This document shows positions 17,935 through 38,637 of a stretch of DNA of 39,317 bases, in pieces; position 1 is the first letter of the stretch, and each line of letters begins with the position of its first letter. The translations under genes were made by a program, and so were the position numbers. The notes under the pieces were generated by a model. That model had not been told where the DNA came from and made no database searches. It was given only the letters and a program-made list of their open reading frames with translations. Source of the DNA: an uncultured Candidatus Saccharibacteria bacterium (GTDB taxonomy: Bacteria > Patescibacteriota > Saccharimonadia > Saccharimonadales > UBA4665); contig CAZOYN010000002.1 of the NCBI GenBank assembly GCA_964584135.1, positions 918 through 40,234 of the forward strand, in the 5' to 3' direction.

Positions 17935-19584
17935 TTGTTTGTTGTCACCCTGGGCTTTATTCTGTTGCATTCCTGGGCTTCTGTACCACAAGCTAGCTGC
18001 ACCAAGATCTTGAGTCCAACCACTGACTTTGCTGGCTTGGTCAATGGCCTAAGCGCTGGTGATGTTGCCTGTTTGCACGCGGGTACCTATAGTGCGCTCG
18101 GTACGACCAACTCCTGGACTAAGTCTGGTAGTTCTACAGCCCCCATCACCGTCGAAGCTGCGCCTGGTGCCACCGTCTTGGTTAAGGGCTACACCTGGCT
18201 TAACGCCAGCTATATCAACGTTTACGGCCTAACCTTTGACGGACCGACTGGCAACGTCAATGTGTCCAACACCCCTAACGGTGAACAAGATGTCCTAGCC
18301 CTGGCTGGCAATAATATCGTGCTCGACCACAGCGAAGTCCGTAATGGCCTGTGGAACGCCGGTATCTTCAGCAGCGGCAGCAACATCACTATCCAGCACT
18401 CCTATATCCACGATAACGGCTCCTGGAACAACCCCAGTGAACAACATCCGGGGGGCGCAGCAAGTAACTTAGATCAAGGCATTTACGTCGGGGAAGGCTC
18501 AAACATCAAGATCCTTAACAACGTCATTTCGCATAACCTCGCTCAAGGCTTACAGATATATCCTAGCCCTACCAACGTCTTAGTAGCAAACAACACCATT
18601 GTTAACAACGGCACGTGGTCTGTTTCGGGACACGGTGCCGGAATTGTAGAGGAAGGCAGCTCTAGCAGCGTAACAATCATAAATAACATAATTGCAAATA
18701 ATGACGGCTATGATATACATACGGCCGGTAGCTTAAGTGGTAGCGGTAATACTGCGTCGTATAACATCAGCTGGCACAATACGGCCGGAGTATGGAACGA
18801 CTCAAGCGGCATTAGCTTGGGCAATAATCTAAACGTTGACCCAAAGTTTGTCTCGGCAACAGATTTTCATCTTCAGCTTGGCAGTCCAGCTATTGACGCT
18901 GGTACCAGCACTAATGCCCCTAACACTGATTACGCTGATACTAGCCGCCCCCAGGGCAGCGGCTATGATATCGGTGCCTACGAATACCTTTCAAGCACGG
19001 GTAGCCCAGACACTACTCCACCCATTGTTAGTATCACAGCCCCAGCGCAAAATGCCACACTCAGCGGCACCGTTAGAGTGTCGGCTTCGGCTAGTGACAA
19101 TACAGGAGTGACAAAAATAGAGTTTTACCTTGATAACACACTGCAACAAAGCGGCATCGCCACTACCTACAGTTGGGATACTACTACTGCAAGTAATGCC
19201 GGGCACACCTTACTGGTTAAAGCCTATGATGCCGCAGGCAGTGTGGGTTCCAGTAACTCCCTGGCTGTGACGGTCAGTAATGCTCCGCCGCTAGCACCGT
19301 CAGCCGACACCACAGCGCCTTCTACCCCCACTAAACTGACTGCTGTTCTCATACAGGGAGGCCATAGTATCAAGTTAAGCTGGCAGGCAAGCACGGATAA
19401 TGTCGGCGTAGCGGGCTATTACATCTGGCGTAACGGTGTAAAAATAGTGGCCACAACATCTAATCCATACAGTGACTATGCAACCGATCCACGCGTAAAA
19501 TATACCTATTACGTTGTCGCATTCGACGCAGCCGGCAATCTAAGCCAGCCTTCGAGTTCAGTTATTCTAACGACAAGAAAATAA
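17935..19584 (+). CDS. Secreted right-handed beta-helix protein (polysaccharide lyase/hydrolase-like) with C-terminal Ig-like and FN3 domains
   Basis: Beta-helix rungs (ILNNVISHN, VANNTIVNNG, IINNIIANNDG), a DIGAYEY terminus, an Ig-like domain (PPIVSITAPAQNATLSGTVRVSASASDNTGVTKIEFYLD) and FN3 (LSWQASTDNVGVAGYYIWRNG). The only in-frame start is TTG 17935. The signal-like N-terminus lacks a basic n-region. Confidence 0.7.
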   Translation: MFVVTLGFILLHSWASVPQASCTKILSPTTDFAGLVNGLSAGDVACLHAGTYSALGTTNSWTKSGSSTAPITVEAAPGATVLVKGYTWLNASYINVYGLTFDGPTGNVNVSNTPNGEQDVLALAGNNIVLDHSEVRNGLWNAGIFSSGSNITIQHSYIHDNGSWNNPSEQHPGGAASNLDQGIYVGEGSNIKILNNVISHNLAQGLQIYPSPTNVLVANNTIVNNGTWSVSGHGAGIVEEGSSSSVTIINNIIANNDGYDIHTAGSLSGSGNTASYNISWHNTAGVWNDSSGISLGNNLNVDPKFVSATDFHLQLGSPAIDAGTSTNAPNTDYADTSRPQGSGYDIGAYEYLSSTGSPDTTPPIVSITAPAQNATLSGTVRVSASASDNTGVTKIEFYLDNTLQQSGIATTYSWDTTTASNAGHTLLVKAYDAAGSVGSSNSLAVTVSNAPPLAPSADTTAPSTPTKLTAVLIQGGHSIKLSWQASTDNVGVAGYYIWRNGVKIVATTSNPYSDYATDPRVKYTYYVVAFDAAGNLSQPSSSVILTTRK

Positions 19585-19747: not shown

Positions 19748-20812
19748 TCAAGTTCTTTTCAGGCGACCGCTTTTGAGGATTTGTTGGAACTCTTGGCGCT
19801 CACCAAGCCAGAAGCTAAAGGTCATCAGCACAATCGTCCCGTAGGCCGGCCAGGCCAGCCACAGCCAGTGGCCGTGCTGGGACAAAAAGCCCGGGCCGGT
19901 GGGCTGCGTGGGCAGGGCGAAGCCGCCAGTGCCGGGCACTTTGATGAGTGCCGCCAGCTGCAGGAACGCCCGCTGTCCATTGGCGTCCGTCGCTTGGATG
20001 CGCACCGGGTAGTAGCCCGATTTTTTATAGCGGTGCTCGATCTGAAGCGCCAGGTTTTTATCAAGCAGCCTGCTCGAAGTACTGCCATCACTCCAGTCCA
20101 CCAGCAGATAGAATGGTGGCCGCCCTCCCAGCACTACGACGGACCAGTTGAATGTGCTACCCGGCGCAAAGGCCTGGAAATGGAACTCGCTCGATAAGAA
20201 CAGCGGCAAGGTGCTGCCGGCAGCGGCTGGGCCGGTAACCACGATGCCCTGTGGCCGAGTCGGCCGCTGGGTGATGGGCTGGCCCGGAGATTGGGCCGGC
20301 GGCGCGTAGGTAACGTGGACGCTCGGTGTGGCCGGTCCTGGATCGTCCGTGGTGTTATAGTCTTGCGCTGTCAGCACATTCATACCTTCCATCAGCCCGG
20401 TCTGGATATCGAAGGTGCCGTTGGCGTTGCACCAGGCGGTGCCGTCAAAGGCACCATTGAGCGTCAGCTTAACGTAGGAGTTCTGCGGGCAGGTGCCGTG
20501 GACAGTAATTGGCACCGAGGTGAACACTTGGCCGTCGGTGGGATAGGTGATGACTGCCCCCTGGCTGAGTGGCGGGGCTGGTACCCGGCCATTGACGGTG
20601 TAGGAAACGGCAACCGTCTTCACCGTCCAGCCGGCAATGAATACGCCGACACACAGCAAGCCGAAGACGGTGATGGGGTGTATCAGGAATCGCCGGTGCA
20701 GGGGTTGGCGCCGCCGGATAGTACGTTTCACGCGAGCCCGCTGCCGGTGCGTGGCCGTAGCCCGCTTGGTTTTAGTAGTGCGCCGCTTGGCGCTGGGTTT
20801 TTTGGTTTTCAT
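19748..20812 (-). CDS. Surface-cluster gene 9: membrane protein anchored at both ends, with Ig/PKD-like ectodomains
   Basis: Lys/Arg-rich N-tail plus a TM helix (ITVFGLLCVGVFIAGW). PKD-like block (VDWSDGSTS...HRYKKSGYYPVRIQATDANG). C-terminal TM (AYGTIVLMTFSFWL). Confidence 0.7.
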   Translation of the reverse strand: MKTKKPSAKRRTTKTKRATATHRQRARVKRTIRRRQPLHRRFLIHPITVFGLLCVGVFIAGWTVKTVAVSYTVNGRVPAPPLSQGAVITYPTDGQVFTSVPITVHGTCPQNSYVKLTLNGAFDGTAWCNANGTFDIQTGLMEGMNVLTAQDYNTTDDPGPATPSVHVTYAPPAQSPGQPITQRPTRPQGIVVTGPAAAGSTLPLFLSSEFHFQAFAPGSTFNWSVVVLGGRPPFYLLVDWSDGSTSSRLLDKNLALQIEHRYKKSGYYPVRIQATDANGQRAFLQLAALIKVPGTGGFALPTQPTGPGFLSQHGHWLWLAWPAYGTIVLMTFSFWLGERQEFQQILKSGRLKRT

Positions 20813-20877
20813 TTAGCTGCTTATATTATTAAACAATAGCAGTAATAATGCCAGAGGGTTTGCGCGAAATAAGCCAC

Positions 20878-21381
20878 CTACTTGATAACTTGCATGGTGT
20901 TGAATAGGGTGCGCCAACTATCGGTCGATAGAGGCTTGGCGGGGCTCACAAACACCAATGTACCGCTTGTGAATACCACTGCCTCTTCCTTGCCCTTCAG
21001 CTCAGTAGGCCGCACAAGGTTGACCGTACCATTGGCCGTGCCAATACTTTTAAACTGGTTCAATTTAGTAAGCAGAGTGGGATAAAACTGCGGGATGTCG
21101 TTGAACTGGCTGGGCGCTGCCTGCTCATTAAAAGTAATTGCGTTGTCAGTGCTGTGGGCAGTAAAACTCAAAACTCCAGACTGCGGATTGTAACTGTAGT
21201 CACTGGGAGCTACCTGCAGGGGTGCAGCTGGTATATAGACTACGAAACTGACCTGTTTAGCAATCGGGCTGGGCAGAGGACTTCCAGACTGGTCTTTTAT
21301 AGATATGACGAGCACAACCAACCCAATCGCTAAAACTATGGCTACACAGATCCAAAATATACGAAAGTGTAGTATTTTCAT
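20878..21381 (-). CDS. Surface-cluster gene 8: N-terminally anchored small ectoprotein (DUF4367/LolA-like pattern)
   Basis: TM helix IFWICVAIVLAIGLVVLVISI followed by about 135 aa. The ATG directly abuts the giant gene's stop (TAGATG). Confidence 0.7.
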   Translation of the reverse strand: MKILHFRIFWICVAIVLAIGLVVLVISIKDQSGSPLPSPIAKQVSFVVYIPAAPLQVAPSDYSYNPQSGVLSFTAHSTDNAITFNEQAAPSQFNDIPQFYPTLLTKLNQFKSIGTANGTVNLVRPTELKGKEEAVVFTSGTLVFVSPAKPLSTDSWRTLFNTMQVIK

Positions 21382-24300
21382 CTATCTTATATTTATATCA
21401 ACCAGAATTGAGCCGCGGCAGGTATCGGCATTAGCCGTGGTGCTGCACTGGGTACCTGGCGCGTTGAATGGCGACTGAGCCAGGCCAAGATAGGTATAGG
21501 GGATGTCCGTTTGGGCAAGCGTAACCAGGGCTGAGGTGTTAACAAAGCCGGCAGTGGCCGTGGGTTTTACGTACGCCCCGACTGAACCGGCGGTGGCTTG
21601 CACGTACACTGGCCCAGCAACCGCAGCAAAACCTGTAATGGTATTAGTAGACGTAAAGCCATTCCATGAGACGAGCACACCAAAGAACGGGCTGGTTGTG
21701 GCGCTCGTAGGCGCTACTTCACCAATAGTTCCGTTCAGCTTCAAGGCCTGTCCAATTGCGGTTGCGGTTGCCACTACTACAGGTATCTTGGTAGAGGTGG
21801 TAAAAGGACGCGTATCATAAATTATACCAATGCCGCTGCCACCAGAGATTTCCTTTATAGTTGCCAGGCAGATAGATGGAGACCCTGGGCTCCACGTGCC
21901 AGGCACAGAGGCAGAAGTTTCCGTGATACTGGCCGTACCGAACGTCGGCTGGTTGCCGGCTGTGAAGACGCAGAGATTTTGGAAGACCGATCCGGTAGTG
22001 GTGATACCTGTAGTGTAATCAGTCGTTTGGGCGTTTATGATTTCCTTCCGGCCATAGGCGTATAGCGTACAGCCTGTCCAGCGGATACTATTAGCCACAC
22101 TGCCCATGTAAACCCTGCAGGGCCCTTTGGAGGTATCACTACCTGCCACGCCGGCTACGTCGCCGGCGTTGGAGTTTGCTCCACTATCTGGGACCACGCC
22201 AAACATTATCATCCCCAAGCCCGCTGTTGATACTAGGTCTTCCCAGTTACCAACACTATTAATGGTGTCATTAATGCAAGCTCTGATTGAGTTCGTAACG
22301 GTGTTATAGTATAGCGCGCCGTTGTTCAGAGTAGTTGAGCAGGAGCTAGAGGCATCGGTATATGTGTTGTACGAATCCAGTCCTAATACTACTTGGTTGG
22401 CGTCGCTGGTTTGTGAACCGATTTGGACTGCTTTTTTGTGATTATCAGCACTAAAAATCATATTCAGTCCCTGCCAGTCCCAAACCTGCAATATCGCTCC
22501 TTCATCTGAACTTGTATGAATTACCAGCGGGCTACTAATGATACCGCGCAGTTGGATTGCAGCTGGGTTGTAAGGTCCCACGCTGCCTCCAGAGGTTAAC
22601 TGGACAGCATCTATCCACAAGGTACCGCTGGTTGTGGTGCTGCTAATAGTCACGCTGTTGAAAGTACTGGTGGCGGTAACGGTACAGGTATAACGCTGCC
22701 AGCCGCTGCCCGATACCCACGATGTACTATTAAGCGTGCAGGTCGCTCCACCTATTGTAGGACTGACGAGTGTAACTGACGCTACCGAAGCAGTAGCAAA
22801 GAAACTAAAGGCATAGGTGCCAGTCGGCAGCGTAGTACCGAGTGCCACCGTTGCCCCAGGTGTGGTGGTGCCAAGGGTGATGGCCATGCTGCCAGTGCCT
22901 TCATAGACTTCACTGGTACTAAAAGTTCGACTAGTGGACGCGATGGTCGCATTGCCAGTGGCCGACCAGCTGGATATACCTGTCTCAAAATCTGAGTTAG
23001 GGATTAAGTTATTCGTCGTTGTATCTACCGATAATAGTGAAGAGGCGCTGGAGTTTTGCACTTGAAAAGCTGCGTTGGAATTAGAACTAGCTTCAAAGAA
23101 TGCCGGGTTTGTGACAGTACCACGTAACTGTATGGCACCGATGTCATAGGGTTGCAATACCGAACCGCTGGCGAGCATGACGGCATCGACGTATAGCGTG
23201 GCGTTCAGCGTCGAAGTAGTTATAACAATCGACGTGGTGGTACCGGTCGTTGTAACGGTGCAAGAGTAGCGCTGGAAACCAGTATTAGAAATGCTGGTTG
23301 AACTAAGGCTGCAGGTACCGCCTCCGCCCGTAAAGCTGACAGTTGAAGCCAATGTGATAGAACTATCGCTCATAGCGTAGAAACTAAAAGTATAGGTACC
23401 GGCTGAAAGCGTGGAGGTAAAACTATTTACGGTGGCTGTGGTATTGCCCGACGTAGCAGTCGTACATTTTAGGCTGGCGAGACCGTAGTAAACCCGTGAT
23501 ACGGTGGCGGTATTTTGCACACAGCTGGCACCCGTGCCGCTACCACTCCAGCCCGAGACCCCGGTTTCAAAACCAGGGTTGGTCAGCAAGTTGCTGTTCG
23601 TCGTATCCACCAGTAAAACAGGCTCACTATTGGCGTTTTGGACCTGGAAAGCGGTAGCAGAGCCGGCTGCGGCAGTATTCTGGACAGTATCGCCACTGTT
23701 ACTAATCGTTTCAGTGGTAGCGCCAGCCTGCAAAGTTATGGTGGTGCTGCTCTGAGTGTTCCCCGCGGTTATAGCCTTGTTCTGGGCACCGTTACCAATA
23801 AGAATGCTGGGTGTGGAGCCGCTGGTGGCGTCGAGCGTTAAATTGCCACTGGAAGTCGTCAGCGTAGAAGCGGCATTGCCCTGCAATGTGATGGCTCCAC
23901 CGGACACGGAGATGCCAGCGCTACCGGTGATCAGCGCGCTGAAGGTTTTGGCACCGCCGATTGTTTGGGGGCTGGCGTTTATGACGCCAGGGTGGGTGCC
24001 ATCTGCCGAGTTGAGATTGAGCACCGAACCAGTCAGCGTAGCGCCGTTAGCGTTGGCTGATCCGGCTGAATCAACTGCCCCGAGGCTAATACCTCCCCCA
24101 CAGCTGCCCCATTGCAACCCAGTCACCGTGCTGGTAGAAGCTGAGGTTGATTGCAGGCACTGGGTGCCGGTGGCACCGCTGGTTGCCCAAGACAGCGAAT
24201 AGCTGTTGGCCAGGCCCGGCATGGTCAGGGTGACCGTCCGGTTGTTTGATGTACCGTCCTGGAAGACTATGCCGCCAGTTGCCGTGGTAGAACCTAGCGT

Positions 24301-25080
24301 CAAGGCATTAACCCCTGCCAGCGTGGCCGTAATGCTACTACCGCCAGTCAAGTTATTAAGCAACGTAATGCCGGTCGCAGTGCCACCTCCGAGACTCAGG
24401 GCGCCGCTGGTAGCGGCATCCAATGTATTGGCGTGCACGGTGCCACCGGACTGGATATTGCCGGAGACATTAATGCTGCCGGACTGCTGTGAGCCGGGGC
24501 TCAGTTGCACCAGCTGGCTGACTGTCAGGCCGCCGACGCGGTTGGCGTTCAGGGCTTGGGGTACAGCCGTCAGGCGGATGAAGGGGGTCATTTCGCCGTC
24601 GCCACCACAGCCTGTGTGAAAGCTAGTTGTTGATGAAGTGACCGTACACGAGCTGGTGTTGCCGACCTGGAACGACAGCCACAAGGTGTCTTGGTTGAAG
24701 TCCACCCCGGTGTTGGTTTTGGCGCCGCAGGTACTGCCAGCCAGCGCACAGATCGAGCCCAGGTTGACGTTAAAGGTACCACTGCTGACGCTCACACCGC
24801 CGGTACTTGGCATGCCGGTGCTGCCAGAGACCAGGTAGTCCTCGGTCCACATCAGCGTGCTGCCGGTCCCGCTGCTGTTGCCGTCCTGGTAGATCTTGAA
24901 CTCCATGTCGTAGGTGCCGTCCGCCAGGTTCACGCCGCTGCTATTGACAACCTTACCCTGAAACGTTAGCTGTTGGTTGATGCCGGCGGCAGCCTGAACC
25001 GGCGCAGCTTGCGTAAGGCATGCTGCAACCAGCCCCACAACCAGTAATCCAATACCCTCAAAAGCTTTTCTGCCAGACAT
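21382..25080 (-). CDS. Surface-cluster gene 7: 1232-aa secreted fibre/adhesin-like protein with tandem CBM-like modules
   Basis: Signal peptide (GLLVVGLVAACLTQAAPVQA). N-terminal LTFQGKVVNSSGVNLADGTYDMEFKIY...TFNVNLGS...LTAVPQAL module resembling tail-fibre N-domains. Thr/Ser/Gly-rich beta repeats. Two ~180-aa repeats with an N-x-x-F-E-T-G...W motif. Cys-containing C-terminal region. Confidence 0.85.
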   Translation of the reverse strand: MSGRKAFEGIGLLVVGLVAACLTQAAPVQAAAGINQQLTFQGKVVNSSGVNLADGTYDMEFKIYQDGNSSGTGSTLMWTEDYLVSGSTGMPSTGGVSVSSGTFNVNLGSICALAGSTCGAKTNTGVDFNQDTLWLSFQVGNTSSCTVTSSTTSFHTGCGGDGEMTPFIRLTAVPQALNANRVGGLTVSQLVQLSPGSQQSGSINVSGNIQSGGTVHANTLDAATSGALSLGGGTATGITLLNNLTGGSSITATLAGVNALTLGSTTATGGIVFQDGTSNNRTVTLTMPGLANSYSLSWATSGATGTQCLQSTSASTSTVTGLQWGSCGGGISLGAVDSAGSANANGATLTGSVLNLNSADGTHPGVINASPQTIGGAKTFSALITGSAGISVSGGAITLQGNAASTLTTSSGNLTLDATSGSTPSILIGNGAQNKAITAGNTQSSTTITLQAGATTETISNSGDTVQNTAAAGSATAFQVQNANSEPVLLVDTTNSNLLTNPGFETGVSGWSGSGTGASCVQNTATVSRVYYGLASLKCTTATSGNTTATVNSFTSTLSAGTYTFSFYAMSDSSITLASTVSFTGGGGTCSLSSTSISNTGFQRYSCTVTTTGTTTSIVITTSTLNATLYVDAVMLASGSVLQPYDIGAIQLRGTVTNPAFFEASSNSNAAFQVQNSSASSLLSVDTTTNNLIPNSDFETGISSWSATGNATIASTSRTFSTSEVYEGTGSMAITLGTTTPGATVALGTTLPTGTYAFSFFATASVASVTLVSPTIGGATCTLNSTSWVSGSGWQRYTCTVTATSTFNSVTISSTTTSGTLWIDAVQLTSGGSVGPYNPAAIQLRGIISSPLVIHTSSDEGAILQVWDWQGLNMIFSADNHKKAVQIGSQTSDANQVVLGLDSYNTYTDASSSCSTTLNNGALYYNTVTNSIRACINDTINSVGNWEDLVSTAGLGMIMFGVVPDSGANSNAGDVAGVAGSDTSKGPCRVYMGSVANSIRWTGCTLYAYGRKEIINAQTTDYTTGITTTGSVFQNLCVFTAGNQPTFGTASITETSASVPGTWSPGSPSICLATIKEISGGSGIGIIYDTRPFTTSTKIPVVVATATAIGQALKLNGTIGEVAPTSATTSPFFGVLVSWNGFTSTNTITGFAAVAGPVYVQATAGSVGAYVKPTATAGFVNTSALVTLAQTDIPYTYLGLAQSPFNAPGTQCSTTANADTCRGSILVDINIR

Positions 25081-25122
25081 AGGCTACGTGTTTTGGTCCC
25101 TACCCAGACTATTACAGTGGTA

Positions 25123-25151
25123 AGTATAAGTTCTTTAAGCCAGCCAGTCAA
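25123..25151 (-). promoter_or_regulatory. Putative sigma70-type promoter in front of the giant gene
   Basis: On the minus strand: TTGACT (25151-25146), 17-nt spacer, TATACT (25128-25123), about 40 nt upstream of ATG 25080. Confidence 0.45.
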
Positions 25152-25156
25152 TCTGC

Positions 25157-26092
25157 TTACGGCTTAAATCGCCGGGCAACGTACCAAGCCGTTGCCAGCA
25201 GTATCGGCGGCAGTACGAAAAGCCACGGGTTGATGTACAGGAAAGCGACGTTATAGGTTGAGAATTTAGCCGAATTATCCGGCCGGTACCGTATGCGCAC
25301 ATGGTACTCGTGAGGCCACCAGGGGCGTCCCAACTTAACCAGTGGTGTTGGCAGCAGCCGGATGCTACCAGGCAACACCAGGGCTGAATCAGGGTTAATT
25401 ACCCCTGTGGCTATCGGCGATGAGGCTTTGCCGCCGTCAATTGTGACCGTACCCCGCGGGGTTGTCTGGGTATTGCCATCATCCTTAAAAAACAAGTTTA
25501 GGCTGGACGGGATGGAGTACTGTACACCAGTCACTTGGGGTGGTGGCATACTCAGGTCTTGGCTGCCGCCACCAGCGGTCGTGACAAACACTAAAGAGGT
25601 CAGCACTTGGTTGATACTCACCTTATTGCCCGAGCCGCTGGGGCCGGTTTTAAGCAATTGGTAAGTTACGGCGCCGTAATGGCCGCCGGGCGCCAGGCCC
25701 AATAGGCTAAACAAGTGGATGGTGACCTTGGCCGAAGCACCGGCGTCTAGGCCTAACTGCTCGGTACCTAAGCGCACCCAATTAGCCAAGCCGTGGCTTT
25801 GTTCCAAGTTGGTCGCCTGTTCGCCTAAAAAGGCGATGCCGCCAGATTCATTCAGCGTCTTGAAGTCGGCAAAACCGAGCTTGATTTGGACGGGGGAAGC
25901 GGTATTATTGGTGACTTGGACCGTAAAATTAGCTTGGTCCTGGCCGTCCACCAGGTGGAGCTGCTCTAAGACTGGCGCCACCGAGACACCGCTCAGCTTG
26001 GTAGCTGGGGTTGGCCCAGCCGCTCCAGCCGAACCAGCATACATGGCCAGCAGCGCCACGACCACCAGCAAACTGGCTAGACGCTTACGCAT
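25157..26092 (-). CDS. Surface-cluster gene 6: divergent third paralogue of the double beta-sandwich, C-terminally TM-anchored proteins
   Basis: Start MRKRLASLLVVVALLAMYAGSAGA (signal peptide) at 26092 overlaps the upstream stop (TGATG). The track's extra 107 N-terminal residues lie inside the upstream gene. C-terminal TM plus RRFKP. Confidence 0.7.
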   Translation of the reverse strand: MRKRLASLLVVVALLAMYAGSAGAAGPTPATKLSGVSVAPVLEQLHLVDGQDQANFTVQVTNNTASPVQIKLGFADFKTLNESGGIAFLGEQATNLEQSHGLANWVRLGTEQLGLDAGASAKVTIHLFSLLGLAPGGHYGAVTYQLLKTGPSGSGNKVSINQVLTSLVFVTTAGGGSQDLSMPPPQVTGVQYSIPSSLNLFFKDDGNTQTTPRGTVTIDGGKASSPIATGVINPDSALVLPGSIRLLPTPLVKLGRPWWPHEYHVRIRYRPDNSAKFSTYNVAFLYINPWLFVLPPILLATAWYVARRFKP

Positions 26093-27129
26093 CAGGTCCG
26101 CCTCCATCGTTTGACGCGCTGGTACAGGTTGCGGCCTAAGGCGTACAACCCACCCAAAGCCAGCACAGCCACGAGCAGCATAAGTAATAGCAATTTCCAG
26201 GGCAGCACCCAGAACGACAGTTCGCCCTCTATGGGGATGTCTCGGGTACCGTCGTTGTAGGCTAATAGCATACGGGCATAATACCGGCCAATGCGTAGTT
26301 TGCTCAAGTTGGTACCGCTCCAATCCAGTTGCCGCAGGGGTATACTGCTTTTGTCGGCAATGGTCTGGCCGTCCACCTGTTTTATCTGATAGCGTGGAAA
26401 GCCATCTTCCCACAGCACCGTGAAAACCCGGTTGCTCCCCGGCAGGATGTTGCCCTGCGCCTGATTAATTTCCAGTGTGGCGATGGGGTCTTTACCGTTC
26501 CGGCTAATAAAGATGTCGCCCGCTGGCACGGCATGGACATTCCCGCTGTTGTGGACGGTGATGTCAAAGGAAGCCGGCAGGTAATCGTACAGTTTTTTGG
26601 AAGCGCTAAAACTAACCACGTTCAGCGTCCGCTTTTCGCCGGGGGCGTTAACGTCCAACAGCACCAAGGTGGCCACGGCACCGGTGACGACATTGTGCTG
26701 GCCGGTGGCGGTGGGTTTGGCGCCGGCTTCGCTAAAGACTACGGCGTAGTAATAGCCGAAAGCGGCCGTCTTGGGTACCTGTATGGTCATGGTGACGGTC
26801 TGCCAGACGTTCGGCTCAGCCACGAACGAAGACTCCGAAAAACTGACCCAGCCTACCGACTCGTCACCGGCCGCCGGTTGGATAATCTGCGGCTTGCCGC
26901 TGGTGCCATCGGCTTTGAATTTCATTAGCGTCACTTTAACCGTCACCGCTTGGCTGCCGGTGTTTTCGACTTTGATCGGCGTCGAGGTGCTGGCTCCCGG
27001 CTTGATGGACAAGCTAATCGGCAGCGGCGAGGTGGTCAGGTTAAAGTCCGCGGCGGCGGCCATGGCGGGGTCAATAAGTGGTAGCAGGCAAGCCAGGGTG
27101 ATGAGCACCACTGAGAAACGGCGCATCAT
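26092..27129 (-). CDS. Surface-cluster gene 5: signal peptide + two beta-sandwich-like domains + C-terminal TM anchor (DUF916/DUF3324-like architecture)
   Basis: AADFNLTTSPLPISLSIKPG...VENTGSQAVTVKV...FGYYYAVVFSE...VHNSGNVHAVPAGDIFIS...LSKLRIGRYYA, C-terminal TM plus a basic tail. ATGA overlap with the upstream gene. Confidence 0.8.
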   Translation of the reverse strand: MMRRFSVVLITLACLLPLIDPAMAAAADFNLTTSPLPISLSIKPGASTSTPIKVENTGSQAVTVKVTLMKFKADGTSGKPQIIQPAAGDESVGWVSFSESSFVAEPNVWQTVTMTIQVPKTAAFGYYYAVVFSEAGAKPTATGQHNVVTGAVATLVLLDVNAPGEKRTLNVVSFSASKKLYDYLPASFDITVHNSGNVHAVPAGDIFISRNGKDPIATLEINQAQGNILPGSNRVFTVLWEDGFPRYQIKQVDGQTIADKSSIPLRQLDWSGTNLSKLRIGRYYARMLLAYNDGTRDIPIEGELSFWVLPWKLLLLMLLVAVLALGGLYALGRNLYQRVKRWRRT

Positions 27130-28187
27130 GTCTGCTGCCTGTACTTTCGTTTATTGCGCCAGCGCATCAACAGGTACACCACTACCGCTGGTACGGTCGG
27201 GATGAGTATGGCGAACATGATCAGCCGCCAGGGTATGACCCAGAACGACAGCTCGCCCTCCACCGGCACGTCGCGGCTGCCATCATTGTAGGTCAGCAGT
27301 AAATGGGCGTAGTAATGGCCAATGCGCAGTTTACTCAAGTTGAGTCCGTCCCAGCTCAGTACCCGCTCCGGAAGACCGCCTGGGTCGGAGATAATTTGGC
27401 CATTGACCCGTTTTGTCTGGTAGGCTGGAAAGCCATCTGACCAACTGGCGGTGAACAACCGGCTGCTGCTTGGTAAAATATTTCCCCCCGAGGCATTGAC
27501 TGCCAGGTGGGCTATATCGTGTTGCTTATCCCGACTAATAAAGATGTCGCCCGACGGGACGGCGTGGACATTACCACTGTTGTGAACGACCACGCTAAAA
27601 TCGGCCGGCAGGAACTCATAGATTTTCTTGGCCGAGACGTAGCTGGTAACACTGAGCGTCCGCTTTTCGCCGGGGGCGTTGACGTCCAACAGCACCAGCG
27701 AGGCCACCGCGCCATGTACGGTGTTGTGCTGGCGCGAGATAGCTGTCTGGCCGGCATCATTCTCGCTAAAGACCACCGCGTAATAGTAGCCAAAAGCCGC
27801 TTCTTTAGGTGGCCGGATGGTCATGGTAACGGTCTGCCAGACATTCGGCTCGGCCTGGAATGAGGTTTCGGAAAAACTGACCCAACTGATATAAGTGTCA
27901 CGCGGCGTGGGGTCAACGATTTCCGGCTTGCCACTGGTGCCATCGGCCTTGAAGGTAAGCAAGCTTACCTTAACGCCCACGGTTTGCGACCCGGTATTCT
28001 GGACTTTCAGAGCCGTGCTGACGGTGCCGCCGGGCTTGACGGATAAGCTAATCGGCAGCGGTGAAACGGTCAGGTTGAAGTCCGCCGCCCAAGCAGCTAA
28101 CGGACTGGCAAGCGTGGTAAAAGCAAGGGCCAAGACTATTACTGCAGCCACCGCCCCGCTGGTCGAGGACCCCTTTAATACAAGCAT
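27126..28187 (-). CDS. Surface-cluster gene 4: paralogue of gene 5 (same architecture)
   Basis: By eye, well over half of residues are identical to 26092-27129, with long near-identical nucleotide runs. ATG 28187 is preferred (TATGCT 6 nt upstream); GTG 28202 is also possible. Confidence 0.8.
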   Translation of the reverse strand: MLVLKGSSTSGAVAAVIVLALAFTTLASPLAAWAADFNLTVSPLPISLSVKPGGTVSTALKVQNTGSQTVGVKVSLLTFKADGTSGKPEIVDPTPRDTYISWVSFSETSFQAEPNVWQTVTMTIRPPKEAAFGYYYAVVFSENDAGQTAISRQHNTVHGAVASLVLLDVNAPGEKRTLSVTSYVSAKKIYEFLPADFSVVVHNSGNVHAVPSGDIFISRDKQHDIAHLAVNASGGNILPSSSRLFTASWSDGFPAYQTKRVNGQIISDPGGLPERVLSWDGLNLSKLRIGHYYAHLLLTYNDGSRDVPVEGELSFWVIPWRLIMFAILIPTVPAVVVYLLMRWRNKRKYRQQT

Positions 28188-28233
28188 GTAATTAGCATAC
28201 ACTAGCCTGTCGTTTACCAGGGCTTATAGAGGT

Positions 28234-29289
28234 TTAGAAGTTGCCGGCGCCAATGACCGTGATGGTATCGGTGTAATCGTTAGCTGCCGGTGTTAGGGCT
28301 GATATAGCCGAACTTTCCTTGACGACGAAGGACGCGCTACTGGCTGTTCCGTTGGAAGAGATGATTTGGCGAATAGTCGAGTCCAGTCCAGAACCTTGGC
28401 CAGCTCCAGCTGTACCGCCCGAGCCATTGCCGTAGGCGTTTGAAGCGGTGGTGGTACCAGCGCCCGAACCCTGGGTAATGCTCGTGATGCCCATAACGTA
28501 ACCTTCGGTGCCGGAACTGAGTGTGGCGTTAGTCCCCGGAGTGGTAGAGGCGATGGTGTGGCTGGCCGCGGCTGAGTTTAGGCCAGTATTGCTATCCTTG
28601 GCCCAGGCTATCCAGCCGTTTTGGGCGTTGGTATTAACGGTGATGGTACAACCACTGGTGCTTACCACGGAACTAGCCGACAGGTTGGCGGTAAAGTTGT
28701 CGGTGTTACTGGCACAGCCGCTAATCACGAAGTTGAAGGTTGGCGGTACGCTGGCGTTAACGACTATCTGGTCGTTGGATACGGTGCGTACGGCAACGGT
28801 GGTTGAATCGCTACCGGCCGTGACTGTTGGGTGGTATTCACCGGCGGTCGCATCAGTAACCGCTGTCGCGCTGGTCAAGTCAACACAGTAAGCCGTGGTA
28901 GCTGCTAAGGCCGTCACGCTGCTTATTGTCACAGTGCTACCAGAACCAGCCGCCGTGATTGAGCCGGGTAGGGCGGTCGCCCCTGTTTCCGAAGCGCAGG
29001 TAGCTGAAGATACTGTCTGGGTAGTATTGACCGCGCCGCTGGAGCCGGTCCAGGTAGTGCTATCGGCACCGTTGAAGTTAATGGCTACCGATGTGGCGCC
29101 GGCCCCGACGGTCTTAAAGACTAAGCGGAAGCTAGTACCTTGCCCAGCCGCCATGCGGTTCAATCGGATATAGGTGTTGGTTAAGGTCGCGGCGGAAACG
29201 GGAGCCAGGGACAATGCCAGCAAATCGGCGGTTCCCAATAGAGAAGCTAGCACCAAAGCTATGGAGCGGTAGGAAAGCTTTAATTTCAT
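28234..29289 (-). CDS. Surface-cluster gene 3: secreted Thr/Ser/Gly/Ala-rich protein with a WxL-domain-like C-terminal module
   Basis: Signal peptide (...LSLAPVSA/ATL). No TM anchor or LPXTG seen. The C-terminal ~170 aa are alignable with the C-terminus of 29383-30414. Ends TPAANDYTDTITVIGAGNF. Confidence 0.8.
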   Translation of the reverse strand: MKLKLSYRSIALVLASLLGTADLLALSLAPVSAATLTNTYIRLNRMAAGQGTSFRLVFKTVGAGATSVAINFNGADSTTWTGSSGAVNTTQTVSSATCASETGATALPGSITAAGSGSTVTISSVTALAATTAYCVDLTSATAVTDATAGEYHPTVTAGSDSTTVAVRTVSNDQIVVNASVPPTFNFVISGCASNTDNFTANLSASSVVSTSGCTITVNTNAQNGWIAWAKDSNTGLNSAAASHTIASTTPGTNATLSSGTEGYVMGITSITQGSGAGTTTASNAYGNGSGGTAGAGQGSGLDSTIRQIISSNGTASSASFVVKESSAISALTPAANDYTDTITVIGAGNF

Positions 29290-29330
29290 AATATGTTTGT
29301 AAACCTTTGGTTTATTTTATAACTGGGTTA

Positions 29331-29360
29331 AGCATAAACTTTTTTAATCAGGGCTGTCAA
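29331..29360 (-). promoter_or_regulatory. Putative sigma70-type promoter for 28234-29289
   Basis: On the minus strand: TTGACA (29360-29355), 18-nt spacer, TATGCT (29336-29331), about 40 nt upstream of ATG 29289. Confidence 0.45.
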
Positions 29361-29382
29361 TGAGCAGCCTGTGGATAAACCC

Positions 29383-30414
29383 CTAAAAACTGGCGGCCGC
29401 CACGAAGGTCAGGATTTCCTGGTAGTCGTTAGCCGCCGGTGTAGTGGTTGCGGCCTTGGCTTTAACAGCCGCTGTTGCCGAACCGCCAGTCACCGCCGCC
29501 GTCGTACTAAAGATTGGCAGGAACGTCAGTGCCGGCGCGCCTACAACGCTGCCGGAGCCGTTATAAGGGCTGGCGATGGTCAGTGGGCCGCCAGACGATT
29601 GCGAAGCAGTCAAACCTTGGACACCGAAGCCTTGGGACTGGGAGCTCAGGTCGGCGCTGACCGCGGCGATGGTCGTAGACGTAGTGGTGCTTTTCAGCCC
29701 GACGTTGGCACCAGCTATATAGACATTGCCACCAGTACCGGCATTGGTCGAAAAACCAACCGCGATGTTCACTCCGCCGGTTATGACCGAACCGGCCAGT
29801 AAACTGCCGAGGTTCAGGCTGCTGGGGCTCAGGCTAAAGGTCAGCGAGGGGTTGGCGGTGCTGGCGTTGGCCGACGCGCCAAAGGCAGAGTTGGTAAACT
29901 GGCCCTGCATGGCCGCCACCTTCACGTAATAGGTCGTGTTCGGAGCTAAGCCGACAATAAACGAGCCGCTGGCGCCACCCCAGGCGGCGTAGCTGCGGTA
30001 GACTTGGCTGGCACCCAGCGTGCCGTCGGATTGCACATAGTTGACGCTGGCAAAATTGCTGACGGTTGATACGGCTATGGCGTAGGTGTAGTCGCTGGCG
30101 TCGGCCCCGCCCTTATTAATAATGCAATTCAGTTTGTTGTAGTAGGTGTTACTGCCATTGTCGAGCGTTGGTGCCAAGGGCACGTTGGCCTGCTGGGCCT
30201 GGATAGAGCTGGGCATAACCTTATCGGTGCTGCCGGTCGGCGGGGTACTGGACACCTCACCGGTGCTGGCGTTGAGCTGGTAGTTCGACGATGAAGCGCT
30301 GTTGGTGCCGCCCGACCCCAGGTTGTAATTTTGCAGCTGATAGGTAGTGCTTTGCGAAAAGGTAGCAAACAACAGCATCGTCATACTACCTAATGATCCC
30401 AAAGCCTTGAACAT
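29383..30414 (-). CDS. Surface-cluster gene 2: secreted protein with N-terminal S-x-NY repeats, FN3-like domain and the same C-terminal module as gene 3
   Basis: ATG 30414 gives MFKALGSLGSMTMLLFATFSQS, 10 nt after the upstream stop; the track start at 30498 overlaps the upstream gene. FN3-like LAPNTTYYVKVAAM. Ends TPAANDYQEILTFVAAASF. Confidence 0.8.
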   Translation of the reverse strand: MFKALGSLGSMTMLLFATFSQSTTYQLQNYNLGSGGTNSASSSNYQLNASTGEVSSTPPTGSTDKVMPSSIQAQQANVPLAPTLDNGSNTYYNKLNCIINKGGADASDYTYAIAVSTVSNFASVNYVQSDGTLGASQVYRSYAAWGGASGSFIVGLAPNTTYYVKVAAMQGQFTNSAFGASANASTANPSLTFSLSPSSLNLGSLLAGSVITGGVNIAVGFSTNAGTGGNVYIAGANVGLKSTTTSTTIAAVSADLSSQSQGFGVQGLTASQSSGGPLTIASPYNGSGSVVGAPALTFLPIFSTTAAVTGGSATAAVKAKAATTTPAANDYQEILTFVAAASF

Positions 30415-30424
30415 ACCTACTATA

Positions 30425-31342
30425 CTATCGCCACTGCCAACTACTGGCAATGCCCAGCAGGGCCGTCTGCATAGCAGCGGAATCGTCAGGCGTACCACCG
30501 CTGAGGGCCAGGCTGGCCACCAAGCCTTGGTGTTGCAAGTAGAGCACCTTACTGAAGTTAAAGCCCGAGCTTTTATCGCTAAACACGTGGACCATAGCGC
30601 CGTTGACGCTTACAAGGTCATCGGTGAAGCGGTCGGGGGTTACCGAACGGAAGTGGTACGAACCATCGTCATTTACATTACCGCTGGGTAGTGATTCAAT
30701 CTGGATAGCCAGTTGCCAAGCCAGCACCTGGTGCCTTACAAAGATATAGTTTTCGAGTATGGGCTGGCGCGGCGGATCGGTATGGCTCTGGCTAAAGTAG
30801 TCGCTATAGCTAAACCTAAAACGTTGGCCGTTAAAGTGTACTAGCTGTGGTGCCGGTGAGTTAGGCTGGACTTGTGATGTATCTAAAGTCCCCTGGCTGG
30901 AGGTGTTGAATGAGCGCACCAGCCAGACGGCCACTACAGCTGCTACCAGCACGGACATGCCGCCGGCGATTGCCAGTGTGCGGCGCCTGGCATACGGTTT
31001 GGTTTTTGACAGCGGGCTTGGCTTAGGTTTGCTAGTGGCGGTTGGCATAAAATACGTCTGCAGGCAATAGGCAAAGGCCGCCAGCACCAGTGCGGCTTGC
31101 CCCACTATCAGCACCTTGTCGCCAAGCCTCACGAACTTTATCAGCAACAGACCCAAGCCGAGCAGTAAGAGTATGAAGTGCCGCCGGCTGATCTGGCCCG
31201 GCCGGCCACTGCCGGCGTGACGGCTGGCCAGCATGAACTTAGCCGATACGACACCAAAAAAAGCCAAAACCATCACATTTATAATAAGCGTAACCATTGC
31301 CGCTATTATGACATACCCGAAACGGCTGGGAGAGTCGGACAA
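30425..31342 (-). CDS. Surface-cluster gene 1: polytopic membrane protein with C-terminal ectodomain
   Basis: Four hydrophobic helices in the first ~135 aa, then a ~170-aa soluble domain. TTG start at 31342 (ATG alternative at 31297). Confidence 0.65.
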   Translation of the reverse strand: MSDSPSRFGYVIIAAMVTLIINVMVLAFFGVVSAKFMLASRHAGSGRPGQISRRHFILLLLGLGLLLIKFVRLGDKVLIVGQAALVLAAFAYCLQTYFMPTATSKPKPSPLSKTKPYARRRTLAIAGGMSVLVAAVVAVWLVRSFNTSSQGTLDTSQVQPNSPAPQLVHFNGQRFRFSYSDYFSQSHTDPPRQPILENYIFVRHQVLAWQLAIQIESLPSGNVNDDGSYHFRSVTPDRFTDDLVSVNGAMVHVFSDKSSGFNFSKVLYLQHQGLVASLALSGGTPDDSAAMQTALLGIASSWQWR

Positions 31343-32275: not shown

Positions 32276-32352
32276 GCGAGTGTAGCTCAGTTGTTTAGAG
32301 CGCTTCCTTGCCAAGGAAGAGGTCGAGAGTTAGAGTCTCTTCACTCGCACCA
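32276..32352 (+). tRNA. tRNA-Gly(GCC), encoded CCA, atypical D-loop and T-loop
   Basis: Acceptor GCGAGTG/CACTCGC, anticodon stem CTTCC/GGAAG, loop TTGCCAA, T-arm GAGAG-TTAGAGT-CTCTT, D-loop AGTTGTTTA, discriminator A73. Confidence 0.85.
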
Positions 32353-32528: not shown

Positions 32529-33212
32529 ATGAGTGACGAATTTTCAGTTCTCAAAGAACGTATTGAGCGCTTACGTAAGATACACCTTAAAGCGATAGGT
32601 GCGTTCAATGCATTTGAACAACTTCAGGAATTCCGGGCACCTAATTTAATCGGCGAAGAGCTAGCCCATAAACATGCACAGGCAGTAGGTGTGTATAAGG
32701 GCTTCTTTAATGTTGCTGAGAATGCTTTGAATACAGAGCTACATATTGCCGTTGCTAAGCTGTTTGACTCACACAAAGACGCTCTTCATATCGAGAAATT
32801 AGTTAATTATGCAGAACAAAATCAAAGAACTATATCAGCCAGACAACAAGCGAGTTTAGACGAAGATGCAGAATATTCTTCGGAGCTTGCAAAAGTCTAC
32901 GAGGGACTGAGCAGGGATGATCTGCTTGAAATAAAAAGTAGCCTTGAGTCTGCCGGCGATAAAATAGCTCGATTAAAGGATGTGCGTGATAAAGAGGTTG
33001 CTCATGTTGATGTTAAAAAACAAGAGAATTTAAAATACTTAACATATGAAGAGTTTGCAGAGCTCATAGAATTATCGAAAAAAATTCTTAATCTAATATC
33101 GAAAAAACTTTACGGCGACATAGCGTGGTTTGAGCTATACAAAGAGCAAGTCGTAGAAGGTTCGCAGTTATTATTAAGACTTGTCGCAAAGTCTGAAGGC
33201 ATTGATAGCTAG
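32529..33212 (+). CDS. HEPN-domain protein, AbiU2-like (candidate abortive-infection RNase)
   Basis: All-helical 227 aa. Rx5H motif in LKDVRDKEVAHVD (R153...H159; nt 32985-33005) in the context typical of Abi-type HEPN families. TGcTACAAT ends 6 nt before the ATG. Confidence 0.55.
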   Translation: MSDEFSVLKERIERLRKIHLKAIGAFNAFEQLQEFRAPNLIGEELAHKHAQAVGVYKGFFNVAENALNTELHIAVAKLFDSHKDALHIEKLVNYAEQNQRTISARQQASLDEDAEYSSELAKVYEGLSRDDLLEIKSSLESAGDKIARLKDVRDKEVAHVDVKKQENLKYLTYEEFAELIELSKKILNLISKKLYGDIAWFELYKEQVVEGSQLLLRLVAKSEGIDS

Positions 33213-35103: not shown

Positions 35104-35604
35104 ATGGAAAAGCCAGAAGTTAGATTACTCATCACCGGTGGCACGATTGACGATGTAGATTACGACAAAGAAGAATACGCACCGATAAGCAGAGATTCTT
35201 TTATCCCAAGTTTGTTAAGACAATCCAGAGTAAGACTGAGGTATGAATATGAGATTATACTTCAGAAAGATAGCCGATTTATAACAGATGAAGATGTACA
35301 GCTAATTTTGGGAAAATGCCAGGCATCTCAAGAAAGTAAAATACTAATTACACACGGGACTTATACGTTAGCTAAAACAGCAAAGGCACTCGGTGCTTTA
35401 AATCTCCCTAAAACAATAGTGCTATTTGGTTCCATGGTTCCAATTAACCATGATGATTCAGATGCACTTTTCAATCTCGGTAATGCGTTTATGGCAGTGC
35501 AGCTATTACCTCAAGGTGTTTATGTCGTTTCAAACGGCAAAATTTTTAATTGGGACAATGTCAGAAAGAACGATGAAGGTAAGTTCTTTGAGCCGGAAAG
35601 ATAA
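35104..35604 (+). CDS. Short asparaginase/glutaminase-family protein (N-terminal domain only)
   Basis: LLITGGTIDD (catalytic Thr motif TGGTI), ILITHGTYTL (HGTDT-like), GSMVPINHDDSDALFNL. 166 aa, so it lacks the usual C-terminal domain. TGgTATACT ends 9 nt before the ATG. Confidence 0.65.
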   Translation: MEKPEVRLLITGGTIDDVDYDKEEYAPISRDSFIPSLLRQSRVRLRYEYEIILQKDSRFITDEDVQLILGKCQASQESKILITHGTYTLAKTAKALGALNLPKTIVLFGSMVPINHDDSDALFNLGNAFMAVQLLPQGVYVVSNGKIFNWDNVRKNDEGKFFEPER

Positions 35605-37667: not shown

Positions 37668-38203
37668 TATTGTTTTACTCTGACTTTCTCAATCATTTTA
37701 TGAGTGCTTACATAGCCAAGAGCGTCTACATCAGGGTCATAAAGTTCAATCATATCTAGATCGGCTCGGTCAAAAGCTCTAGCGCCCTTTATATTGCTAG
37801 TACCGTTTAGTAACGACTGCTTCAGTCCATCATATTCGGCTTGCTCTAAATAGAAATCCAAATCGCCCACTTGATAACGATACGGATCTGGCTTACGAAC
37901 ATACAAGTAGGTATAGGCGGTTTCAGGGACATCATCTGCTGGCGGAATAATGATTGGTTCGTGCAGCCTAAAGTACTTCTGATTAAAGCTATCTGATGGC
38001 TCAGTTAGTTCTTCCTTCAGAGTGGTTAAGTATTCGTACTCATCATCATAATGGCAAAAAATGCCAATATTACCTGCGCTGGGAAGGTATTTACCAAATG
38101 ATTGTTTGCATAATTTATAGCAAGCAAAGTGCGTGTACTTAATAGCCTCCATTAGCTGTTCTTTGCTGTTGATAGGGCTGAAACGATATAATTTCACCTT
38201 CAC
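37667..38203 (-). CDS. Hypothetical protein
   Basis: 178-aa ORF. Its GTG start overlaps the upstream stop (GTGA). No recognisable motif. Confidence 0.6.
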   Translation of the reverse strand: MKVKLYRFSPINSKEQLMEAIKYTHFACYKLCKQSFGKYLPSAGNIGIFCHYDDEYEYLTTLKEELTEPSDSFNQKYFRLHEPIIIPPADDVPETAYTYLYVRKPDPYRYQVGDLDFYLEQAEYDGLKQSLLNGTSNIKGARAFDRADLDMIELYDPDVDALGYVSTHKMIEKVRVKQ

Positions 38204-38637
38204 TCCACAGCATTGCTGTTATCTAAGATATTATGTTTGGTAGTAATTCGTAGGTAGTAGCCAAATGGGTCAGCAGTTCTAAAATCCTTGCTCCCCCAAG
38301 GGCGTAGTACTAATGGCTCAACCACGTTTGCAACGTCTTTGACTTGCTGATAATACGAATCTATATCATCAACCATGATAACAATTTCTACGCCGTAGCC
38401 TCTCGCAGTATCTTTAGGGAATCGCTTAAAATAAGTTTGGTCATACACTGAGTCAGTACCCGACCAAAAACACAAAATAGTGTTATCCATTTTTAACACT
38501 AAATAGCCCTTGTCGGCTTCGGGTTCTCGTTCCCAAACTATCTTAAAACCTAGCTTGCCATAGTATTCTTTAACTGGCTCAAAGTCAGGCACATGTAGTT
38601 CCAATTGCAAATAGTTAGTTGCTGGTGTCCTATTCAT
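38200..38637 (-). CDS. VOC (glyoxalase/bleomycin-resistance) family protein
   Basis: Beta-alpha-beta-beta-beta pattern: LELHVPDFEPVKEYYGKLGFKIV ... GVEIVIMVDDID ... RPWGSKDFRTADPFGYYLRI. ATG 38637 is preferred over TTG 38649. Confidence 0.7.
   Translation of the reverse strand: MNRTPATNYLQLELHVPDFEPVKEYYGKLGFKIVWEREPEADKGYLVLKMDNTILCFWSGTDSVYDQTYFKRFPKDTARGYGVEIVIMVDDIDSYYQQVKDVANVVEPLVLRPWGSKDFRTADPFGYYLRITTKHNILDNSNAVE

Follow-up and report, generated by a model that had tools for sequence, protein, structure and literature searches.

A nine-gene surface cluster of an uncultured Saccharibacteria bacterium as a probable Saccharimonadia version of the CPR Pam pilus system

The Pam pilus is a chaperone-assisted attachment filament of parasitic, ultrasmall bacteria of the Candidate Phyla Radiation (CPR), to which it is specific. 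It was first described in 2026 (Troman et al., bioRxiv 10.64898/2026.03.03.709456), in Ca. Mycosynbacter amalyticus, a parasitic member of the Saccharimonadia. Cryo-electron microscopy (cryo-EM) of M. amalyticus filaments led to two pilins, PamA and PamB (25PZ, 25QA). In each, a signal peptide precedes an N-terminal beta-sandwich of nine strands, from which a single linker strand leads to a truncated immunoglobulin (Ig)-like C-terminal domain. The polymer forms as each subunit gives its linker strand to the next, and conservation is highest in this donated linker and in the groove of the C-terminal domain. According to the same preprint, the pam operon also encodes a third pilin (PamE), a tip pilin (PamT), the PapD/FimC-like chaperones PamC and PamD, which unlike Gram-negative chaperones carry a C-terminal transmembrane (TM) helix, and PamR, an RbmA-like protein with an N-terminal strand and a C-terminal TM helix that is the proposed terminator and anchor of the pilus. 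A 'tail fibre-like' protein is consistently co-localised with the operon, and the authors stress its ATP-synthase neighbourhood. A second system relevant here is that of the WxLIP proteins, which have a signal peptide, two Ig-like domains (DUF916 and DUF3324) and a TM helix within 337–365 amino acids (PDB 9i1y, 9i25) and are predicted to insert a strand into WxL. Here we compare with these systems a cluster of nine minus-strand open reading frames (ORFs), at positions 19748–31342 of DNA from an uncultured Candidatus Saccharibacteria bacterium (GCA_964584135.1, contig CAZOYN010000002.1, positions 918–40,234 of the forward strand). We refer to the whole stretch of 39,317 nt as the window, and to the genes as G1 to G9 in order of transcription (Table 1).

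We consider it probable, at roughly 80%, that these nine genes make up a Saccharimonadia form of the CPR Pam pilus system, and a pilus built by donor-strand exchange is its best functional reading, in preference to a wall-bound complex of the WxL type. The original prediction, made from the sequence alone, was of an undescribed attachment apparatus. The data support a dedicated and conserved cell-surface attachment apparatus of an episymbiont lineage, the Saccharimonadia, but 'undescribed' has to be withdrawn, because the 2026 preprint has the same parts list and NCBIfam models for PamR and PamT match G9 strongly and G2 weakly, respectively.

General features of the nine products were as predicted. 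Hydropathy analysis placed N-terminal hydrophobic segments in all nine products and C-terminal ones also in G4, G5, G6 and G9, so that each has a signal-peptide-like or TM segment, the stretch in G2 being short and below the hydropathy threshold used. A Pfam scan of the nine products gave no domain at its curated cut-off and weak matches without a consistent enzymatic family, bearing out the claim that enzymatic domains are lacking. The secreted products are rich in Thr, Ser and Gly. A motif check confirmed that the secreted proteins lack W-x-L and LPXTG: LPXTG or LPx[TSA]G is absent from all nine products, no W-x-L occurs in G3 or G7, and the sole one in the G2 ORF lies upstream of the likely start at 30414. 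No sortase domain was found among the window ORFs scanned (most, not all, of the window), no usher among the nine products or the scanned flanking ORFs, and no Pfam PapD hit on the window proteins.

The most direct link to the Pam system comes from NCBIfam release 20, which holds PamR and PamT models derived from the preprint. G9 matches NF058578 (CPR_pilus_PamR, 'pilus system RbmA-like protein PamR') with an E-value of 2.4e-62 over positions 36–292 of the 297 in the model. The homology is accompanied by the PamR features of a conserved strand after the signal and a C-terminal hydrophobic helix: G9 consists of a basic N-terminal tail, a TM/signal segment (41–70), the conserved strand 'TVNGRVPAPP', two Ig/PKD-like domains with weak Pfam matches to PKD and Glucodextran_B, and the C-terminal TM helix. 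For comparison with relatives, one genome per species was scanned, giving 261 G5 relatives, and the 80 closest loci were fetched; all counts out of 80 refer to these, which do not include the M. amalyticus locus, and 139 of their proteins were scanned with profiles. The PamR model matched 19 of the 139, and when G9-like proteins from the loci were scanned singly all ten matched it, the best with 294.5 bits. In the locus of this best match (L079), the closest to PamR, the neighbours stand in the same order as in the window cluster. PamR-like genes lie within 10 kb in 20 of the 80 loci, and in 17 of these 20 they are upstream of the pilin genes, unlike in the window, where G9 is at the 3' end. 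A PamR-family search returned 81 proteins, none with an M. amalyticus accession.

G2 matches the second model, NF058579 ('CPR-type pilus protein PamT'), at its N-terminus only (E 8e-5). It begins with a short putative signal peptide and a PamT-like hairpin motif (NYQL...GxGG...YxL..GE), followed by a 'QANVPxAPT' strand, a fibronectin type III (FnIII)-like domain, a linker and a C-terminal domain common to G3. The PamT model is matched by 18 of the 139 loci proteins (best 2.8e-10), of which the only one tabulated is G2-like. The C-terminal module that G2 and G3 had been predicted to share is clearly related by hhalign (probability 99.4%, E 1e-21) and by BLASTP (36% over 174 aa). When hhalign was run on all family pairs, G2–G3 and G5–G6 were the only related ones; the N-terminal module of G7, G1 and G9 were not detectably related to pilins or chaperones.

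G3 is the candidate major pilin. An AlphaFold2 model built with 39 homologues (mean predicted local distance difference test score, pLDDT, 89.7) gave a layout, assigned by DSSP, of a signal peptide (1–33), an N-terminal beta-sandwich (37–170), a linker (171–184, DQIVVNASVPPTF) and a C-terminal Ig-like domain (185–351) that ends in a conserved ...AGNF (terminal strand ...AGxF in the family). At the level of modelled architecture, G3 has the signal peptide, N-terminal sandwich, linker strand and Ig-like C-terminal domain of a Pam pilin. The search for G3 homologues gave 690. In an alignment of 90 homologues, conservation is highest in the linker (DQIVVxAxVPPTF), in the C-terminal domain core and in the terminal strand, and the linker is an unpaired coil in the monomer model. 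A linker that is conserved yet unpaired matches the pattern of the preprint, in which the donated linker is among the most conserved parts. G3-like genes are frequently found as two or three tandem copies per locus. A strand motif, "VxAxVP(P)", is common to G3 (linker 'VVxAxVPPTF'), G2 ('QANVPxAPT') and the G9 family ('TVxAxVPxPxP'), an observation that goes beyond the text of the preprint; from their sequences, we infer that these strand-plus-proline motifs are candidate donor strands. Sequence searches of the PDB with G2, G3, G7, G9 and the family profiles A1 and A2, made in copies without the Pam entries 25PZ and 25QA, returned chance-level matches only (ribosomal protein S11, antibody VL domains, SRPK1). 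One segment of G3 (about 102–138, PGSITAAGSGSTVTISSVTALAATTAYC) faintly resembles framework 3 of antibody light chains in a profile search against the PDB (E 0.014), which is probably chance or a convergent Ig-like feature.

The three tandem anchored paralogues of the original prediction also stand, G4 being 60% identical to G5 and G6 a distant but clear homologue of the G5 family (hhalign probability 99.8%, E 5e-29). The AlphaFold2 model of G5 (40 homologues, pLDDT 88.3) consists of a signal helix, beta-sandwiches at 31–160 and 169–308, and a TM helix at 311–344; G4 likewise has a signal peptide, two beta-sandwich domains, a TM helix (318–348) and a basic tail. A Foldseek search of the PDB with the G5 model gave as top match the Enterococcus faecium WxLIP 9i25_C (E 2e-9), with 9i1y also present, together with the chaperones CsuC (5d6h, 6fqa) and CfaA (6k73, 4y2o, 4ncd) at E 2e-9 to 2e-8 and probability 1.0, as well as YadV and, further down the list, RbmA. 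A PapD/FimC-like chaperone fold with a C-terminal TM helix is accordingly modelled for G5, for which 977 homologues were found, and predicted by homology for G4 and G6. Pfam WxLIP_PGBD (PF06030, gathering score 27.3) was matched below threshold by two window proteins, G6 (E 0.02) and G5 (E 0.21), both of the anchor type, and by 22 of the 139 loci proteins (best E 2e-6); WxLIP_HBD (PF11797) had no match in the proteins scanned.

The gene-order survey in relatives, proposed as a check of the original prediction, supports the cluster as a unit. A tblastn search of the nine window proteins against the 80 loci found G6-like sequences in 74, G3-like in 73, G2-like in 69, G5-like in 68 and G7-like in 65, so that five families, with the tail-fibre-like gene among them, recur in CPR genomes as in the described operon. 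The order is always G2, G3 (one to three copies), G4/G5 (one or two copies), G6 and G7. One contig from JGI (L081) repeats this module of seven genes, and its three chaperone-like genes overlap by 4 nt. The genes that flank the cluster in the window are conserved in none of the 80 loci. Most loci are labelled as Saccharibacteria, Saccharimonadales or Saccharimonadia metagenome-assembled genomes (MAGs), with other labels too. Seventeen cluster-bearing MAGs (L016, L021, L025, L026, L028, L033, L035, L036, L041, L047, L054, L056, L057, L060, L063, L066 and L071) bear the titles Bdellovibrionales, Gammaproteobacteria, Terrimonas, Burkholderiaceae or Limnocylindria, for which wrongly labelled bins or contigs from contamination are the likely explanation.

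G7 is the variable component. In the G7-like proteins of more than 60 loci, only residues of about 30–200 are conserved; the remainder is hypervariable, with overall lengths of 161–2877 aa. The variable part of G7 contains two modules at about 491–850 that resemble carbohydrate-binding modules (CBMs) and GTA spike fibres. NCBIfam GTA_spike_fiber matches two stretches at E 1e-6, below its cut-off, although self-BLAST of G7 found no internal repeats at E<1e-3; the Pfam scan and a PHROG search gave no match for G7. Its equivalent in L081 (13174–17856, 1560 aa) carries Beta_helix/NosD. We regard G7 as a likely host-surface adhesin, and a fibre this variable is a plausible determinant of host range. 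G8, with a TM helix at 1–33, has homologues in 6 of the 80 loci only, in each case overlapping the end of a G7-like gene or lying no more than 32 nt from it; its distribution suggests an accessory that accompanies certain G7 variants. Convergent on G9 lies a gene (17935–19584, plus strand) whose secreted product of 549 aa combines right-handed beta-helix/NosD, Big_7 and FnIII-like parts; it may be a related surface protein that binds or degrades glycans.

G1 had been described as polytopic, which is true of the window clade (TM-like segments at 6–41, 53–96 and 121–147) but not of the family. The conserved unit is one TM helix with an ectodomain of about 160 aa, about 190–210 aa in all, most homologues have 185–230 aa, and the extra N-terminal TM helices are confined to close relatives. 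A search of the family gave 322 representatives at E<=1e-3, mostly of 185–210 aa, and a Pfam scan of 40 members found no common domain. With an iterative hidden Markov model, G1-like ORFs were found in 60 of the 80 loci, either immediately ahead of the G2-like gene or in the interval from the G6-like to the G7-like gene. The presence of this conserved protein in 60 of 80 loci goes beyond the text of the preprint.

These features can be assembled into a working model; the filament structure by cryo-EM pertains to M. amalyticus PamA/PamB only, and the mechanism for the present cluster is proposed here. All cluster products would be exported by Sec. Both the major pilin, G3, and the minor or tip-type pilin, G2, would have a C-terminal Ig-like domain that is incomplete alone, and G4, G5 and G6 would cap this domain by beta-strand donation, the invariant AAFGYYYAVVF being a candidate strand. 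In donor-strand exchange, the linker of the incoming pilin (DQIVVNASVPPTF in G3) would displace the chaperone strand and so extend the polymer, with the tip subunit incorporated first and with neither an usher nor an ATPase expected to take part. Donation of the N-terminal strand of G9 (TVNGRVPAPP) to the last pilin would terminate the filament, and the C-terminal TM helix of G9 would hold it in the membrane. G7, with its conserved N-terminal module and hypervariable CBM-like part, would be the probable host-surface adhesin, G8 its accessory, and G1 a conserved component of the apparatus.

Several points weigh against identifying the cluster with the Pam system. The proposed homology of G3 to PamA/PamB and of G4–G6 to PamC/PamD is based on architecture, context and fold class, and no family member scanned had a match to an NCBIfam model for PamA–E. 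Foldseek of the G3 model returned generic tandem-Ig adhesins only, with template-modelling scores of 0.17–0.25. G9 (210.5 bits) and G2 (22.1 bits) fall below the NCBIfam equivalog cut-offs of 300 and 240 for PamR and PamT; judged by sequence, each is a homologue that lies outside the narrow equivalog definition. G2 is also larger than PamT (343 vs 241 aa), with an extra FnIII-like domain and linker. There is no ATP-synthase Pfam hit among the scanned ORFs of the window, and no ATP-synthase genes lie within 10 kb in L081. Lastly, the chaperone and terminator roles are AlphaFold-based proposals in the preprint too.

An alternative reading of the same parts is a non-filamentous complex of the WxL/Csc type, in which G4–G6 tether G2, G3 and G7 by beta-strand insertion and no pilus is formed. 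The original prediction had noted a parallel with the WxL/Csc loci, and for the anchored paralogues this parallel is structural: the top Foldseek match of G5 is the E. faecium WxLIP, including the WxL-bound complex 9i25_C, WxLIP proteins have the same layout and size, and the sub-threshold WxLIP_PGBD matches recur in G5, G6 and the loci proteins, among whose 25 most frequent families PapD does not appear. The parallel ends with the partners. No Pfam WxL hit was obtained in the nine products, whereas a WxL/Csc locus has two or more proteins that end in a WxL domain; W-x-L is missing from G3, from G7 and from G2 as read from its likely start; no small LPXTG-anchored protein is found in the nine products; and the window proteins all stay under the Pfam gathering score. 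Furthermore, the cluster contains a clear PamR homologue in G9, in M. amalyticus the filaments are built of proteins laid out like G3 (bioRxiv 10.64898/2026.03.03.709456), and the strong conservation of the G3 linker fits strand donation between subunits better than tethering, leaving the tethered complex unlikely. A broader proposal joins the two systems: the Pam chaperones and WxLIP would be true homologues within an usher-less strand-complementation system of bacteria without an outer membrane, Pam being its polymerising branch. We offer this tentatively, as doubtful on present evidence; under it, the N-terminal module of G7 (about 170 aa) would be an adaptor that loads interchangeable host-recognition fibres on the pilus, and the G1-like protein would be a missing core assembly factor. 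WxL has no mention in the Pam preprint (bioRxiv 10.64898/2026.03.03.709456), and the WxLIP link is a small addition beyond it, which may reflect a shared Ig-like fold class only. The structural tie to enterococcal and lactobacillal WxLIP hints at an assembly mode older and wider than either literature states.

It is improbable that the locus encodes an S-layer or envelope scaffold, or a loose set of independent adhesins without a common assembly pathway. The Thr/Ser/Gly-rich composition of the secreted proteins, the four loose junctions with internal promoter-like sites, and the lack of conservation of the cluster flanks in relatives would fit such a locus, but five or six families occur together in a strictly conserved order (65–74 of 80 loci), the pairing of an open Ig-like domain with a chaperone-like fold argues for a common pathway, and the PamR homology of G9 points the same way. 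We give the least credence, very little indeed, to a prophage or tail-fibre remnant. The weak GTA_spike_fiber match in G7, and the likeness of the G7–G8 pair to a tail fibre with its assembly protein, stand against the absence of any PHROG match for G7, G8 and G1, the absence of other phage genes in the cluster, the conserved synteny with pilin and chaperone genes, and a GC profile without sharp change at the cluster ends, unlike at the low-GC island beyond 32.4 kb. Three known systems were ruled out. Sortase-assembled pili would bring LPXTG, which is missing from the nine products, and a sortase, of which the scanned window ORFs showed none; type IV pili are contradicted by the lack of an ATPase and of prepilin features, and a canonical WxL locus by the lack of a WxL domain.

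The coordinates of the cluster are collected in Table 1. All nine consecutive minus-strand ORFs were confirmed where the original prediction had placed them, although the longest ORFs of G2 and G6 are over-extended. The four tight junctions it listed are exact: the G1 stop (30425) and the G2 ATG (30414) are separated by a gap of 10 nt, G4/G5 overlap by ATGA (27129/27126), G5/G6 overlap by TGATG with the G6 ATG at 26092, and G7 and G8 abut at TAGATG (21382/21381). The idea of a single co-translated operon holds for these junctions but is weakened by four looser ones: G2–G3 (93 nt), G3–G4 (31–46 nt), G6–G7 (76 nt) and G8–G9 (65 nt). The two best sigma-70-like matches of the region coincide with the two largest gaps, upstream of G3 and of G7. 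Because of these four gaps of 31–93 nt, the two largest with a sigma-70-like match, the cluster may comprise several transcription units instead of one co-translated operon; the sequence suggests separate promoters for the fibre (G7) and the major pilin (G3).

Table 1. Genes of the cluster and promoter-like matches, in window coordinates.
Feature	Position	Strand	Description
G1	30425–31342	-	Membrane protein; clade-specific N-terminal TM block and family-conserved last ~200 aa
G2	ORF 29383–30498; likely start ATG 30414 (29383–30414)	-	Candidate secreted minor/tip-type pilin
G3	28234–29289	-	Candidate major pilin
G4	27126–28202	-	Membrane-anchored, chaperone-like; close G5 paralogue
G5	26092–27129	-	Membrane-anchored, chaperone-like; PamC/PamD-type, WxLIP-like
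G6	ORF 25157–26413; likely start ATG 26092 (25157–26092)	-	Divergent second chaperone-like type; 311 aa
G7	21382–25080	-	1232-aa secreted fibre/adhesin
G8	20878–21381	-	Small N-terminally anchored protein, coupled to G7
G9	19748–20812	-	PamR-like; candidate pilus terminator and membrane anchor
Sigma-70-like promoter match	29331–29360	-	G2–G3 gap; TTGACA-18-TATGCT, 10/12, consensus match only
Sigma-70-like promoter match	25123–25151	-	G6–G7 gap; TTGACT-17-TATACT, 10/12, consensus match only

Elsewhere in the window, a tRNA-Gly gene (32276–32352) is followed by a low-GC stretch (38–43% vs 50–58% elsewhere) that contains genes for a HEPN AbiU2 protein (32529–33212), an asparaginase N-terminal fragment (35104–35604) and a glyoxalase-family protein (38200–38649). 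The segment 32276–39317 resembles an island that entered at the tRNA, immediately upstream of the pilus cluster, and is possibly a defence island. A small ORF (9767–10141, plus strand) matches Phage_holin_4_2 (E 1e-21); it adjoins an M24 gene of the aminopeptidase P type, and no further phage genes were seen in its vicinity.

Among surface filaments specific to the CPR, Pam pili alone have a known structure, and they are thought to make the first contact with the host cell. The present annotation gives names and testable roles to nine 'hypothetical' genes and exposes variation between genomes in the number of pilins and chaperones, in the position of PamR and, above all, in the fibre.

Compared with known systems, the cluster shares with chaperone-usher pili (Pap/Fim, and especially the archaic and alternative Csu and CFA/I) the chaperone-like fold of G5, matched to CsuC and CfaA at E-values of about 1e-9, subunits of Ig-like fold that probably depend on strand complementation and end in a conserved aromatic C-terminus, and a predicted tip-first assembly that grows from the base. 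It differs in that no outer membrane and no usher are involved, the chaperones are membrane-anchored and show no detectable sequence similarity to Pfam PapD families, and the pilins have two domains, with a predicted donor strand that is an internal linker rather than an N-terminal extension. With the WxL/Csc loci of Lactobacillales it shares a monoderm envelope, an anchored protein of about 340–360 aa in which two Ig-like domains lie between a signal peptide and a C-terminal TM helix, small and large secreted proteins with a common C-terminal module, and, as we propose for the window, binding of the anchored protein to a secreted partner by strand insertion. The phylum is different, the window has no WxL domain, W-x-L or LPXTG protein and stays below the WxLIP gathering score of Pfam, its partner proteins have the Pam pilin layout, and a PamR-type terminator is present.

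The comparison with the Pam operon reveals differences mainly of number and position: one G3-type pilin against three (PamA, PamB and PamE), three chaperone-like genes against two, PamR at the far 3' end after the fibre, and G1-like and G8 genes that correspond to none of the components named in the preprint. Shared with the Pam operon are the CPR/Saccharimonadia host, products that are all predicted to be exported by Sec, pilins of two domains joined by a conserved linker, the C-terminal one being Ig-like, chaperone-like proteins that also have two domains and are anchored by a TM helix at the C-terminus, a PamR homologue with a C-terminal TM helix, the lack of usher, ATPase and sortase among the ORFs scanned, the order of tip-like pilin, pilin(s) and chaperone (that of the Pam operon inferred from the accession numbers in the preprint), and an adjacent giant tail-fibre-like protein. 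The cluster does not overturn current understanding but extends the discovery of 2026.

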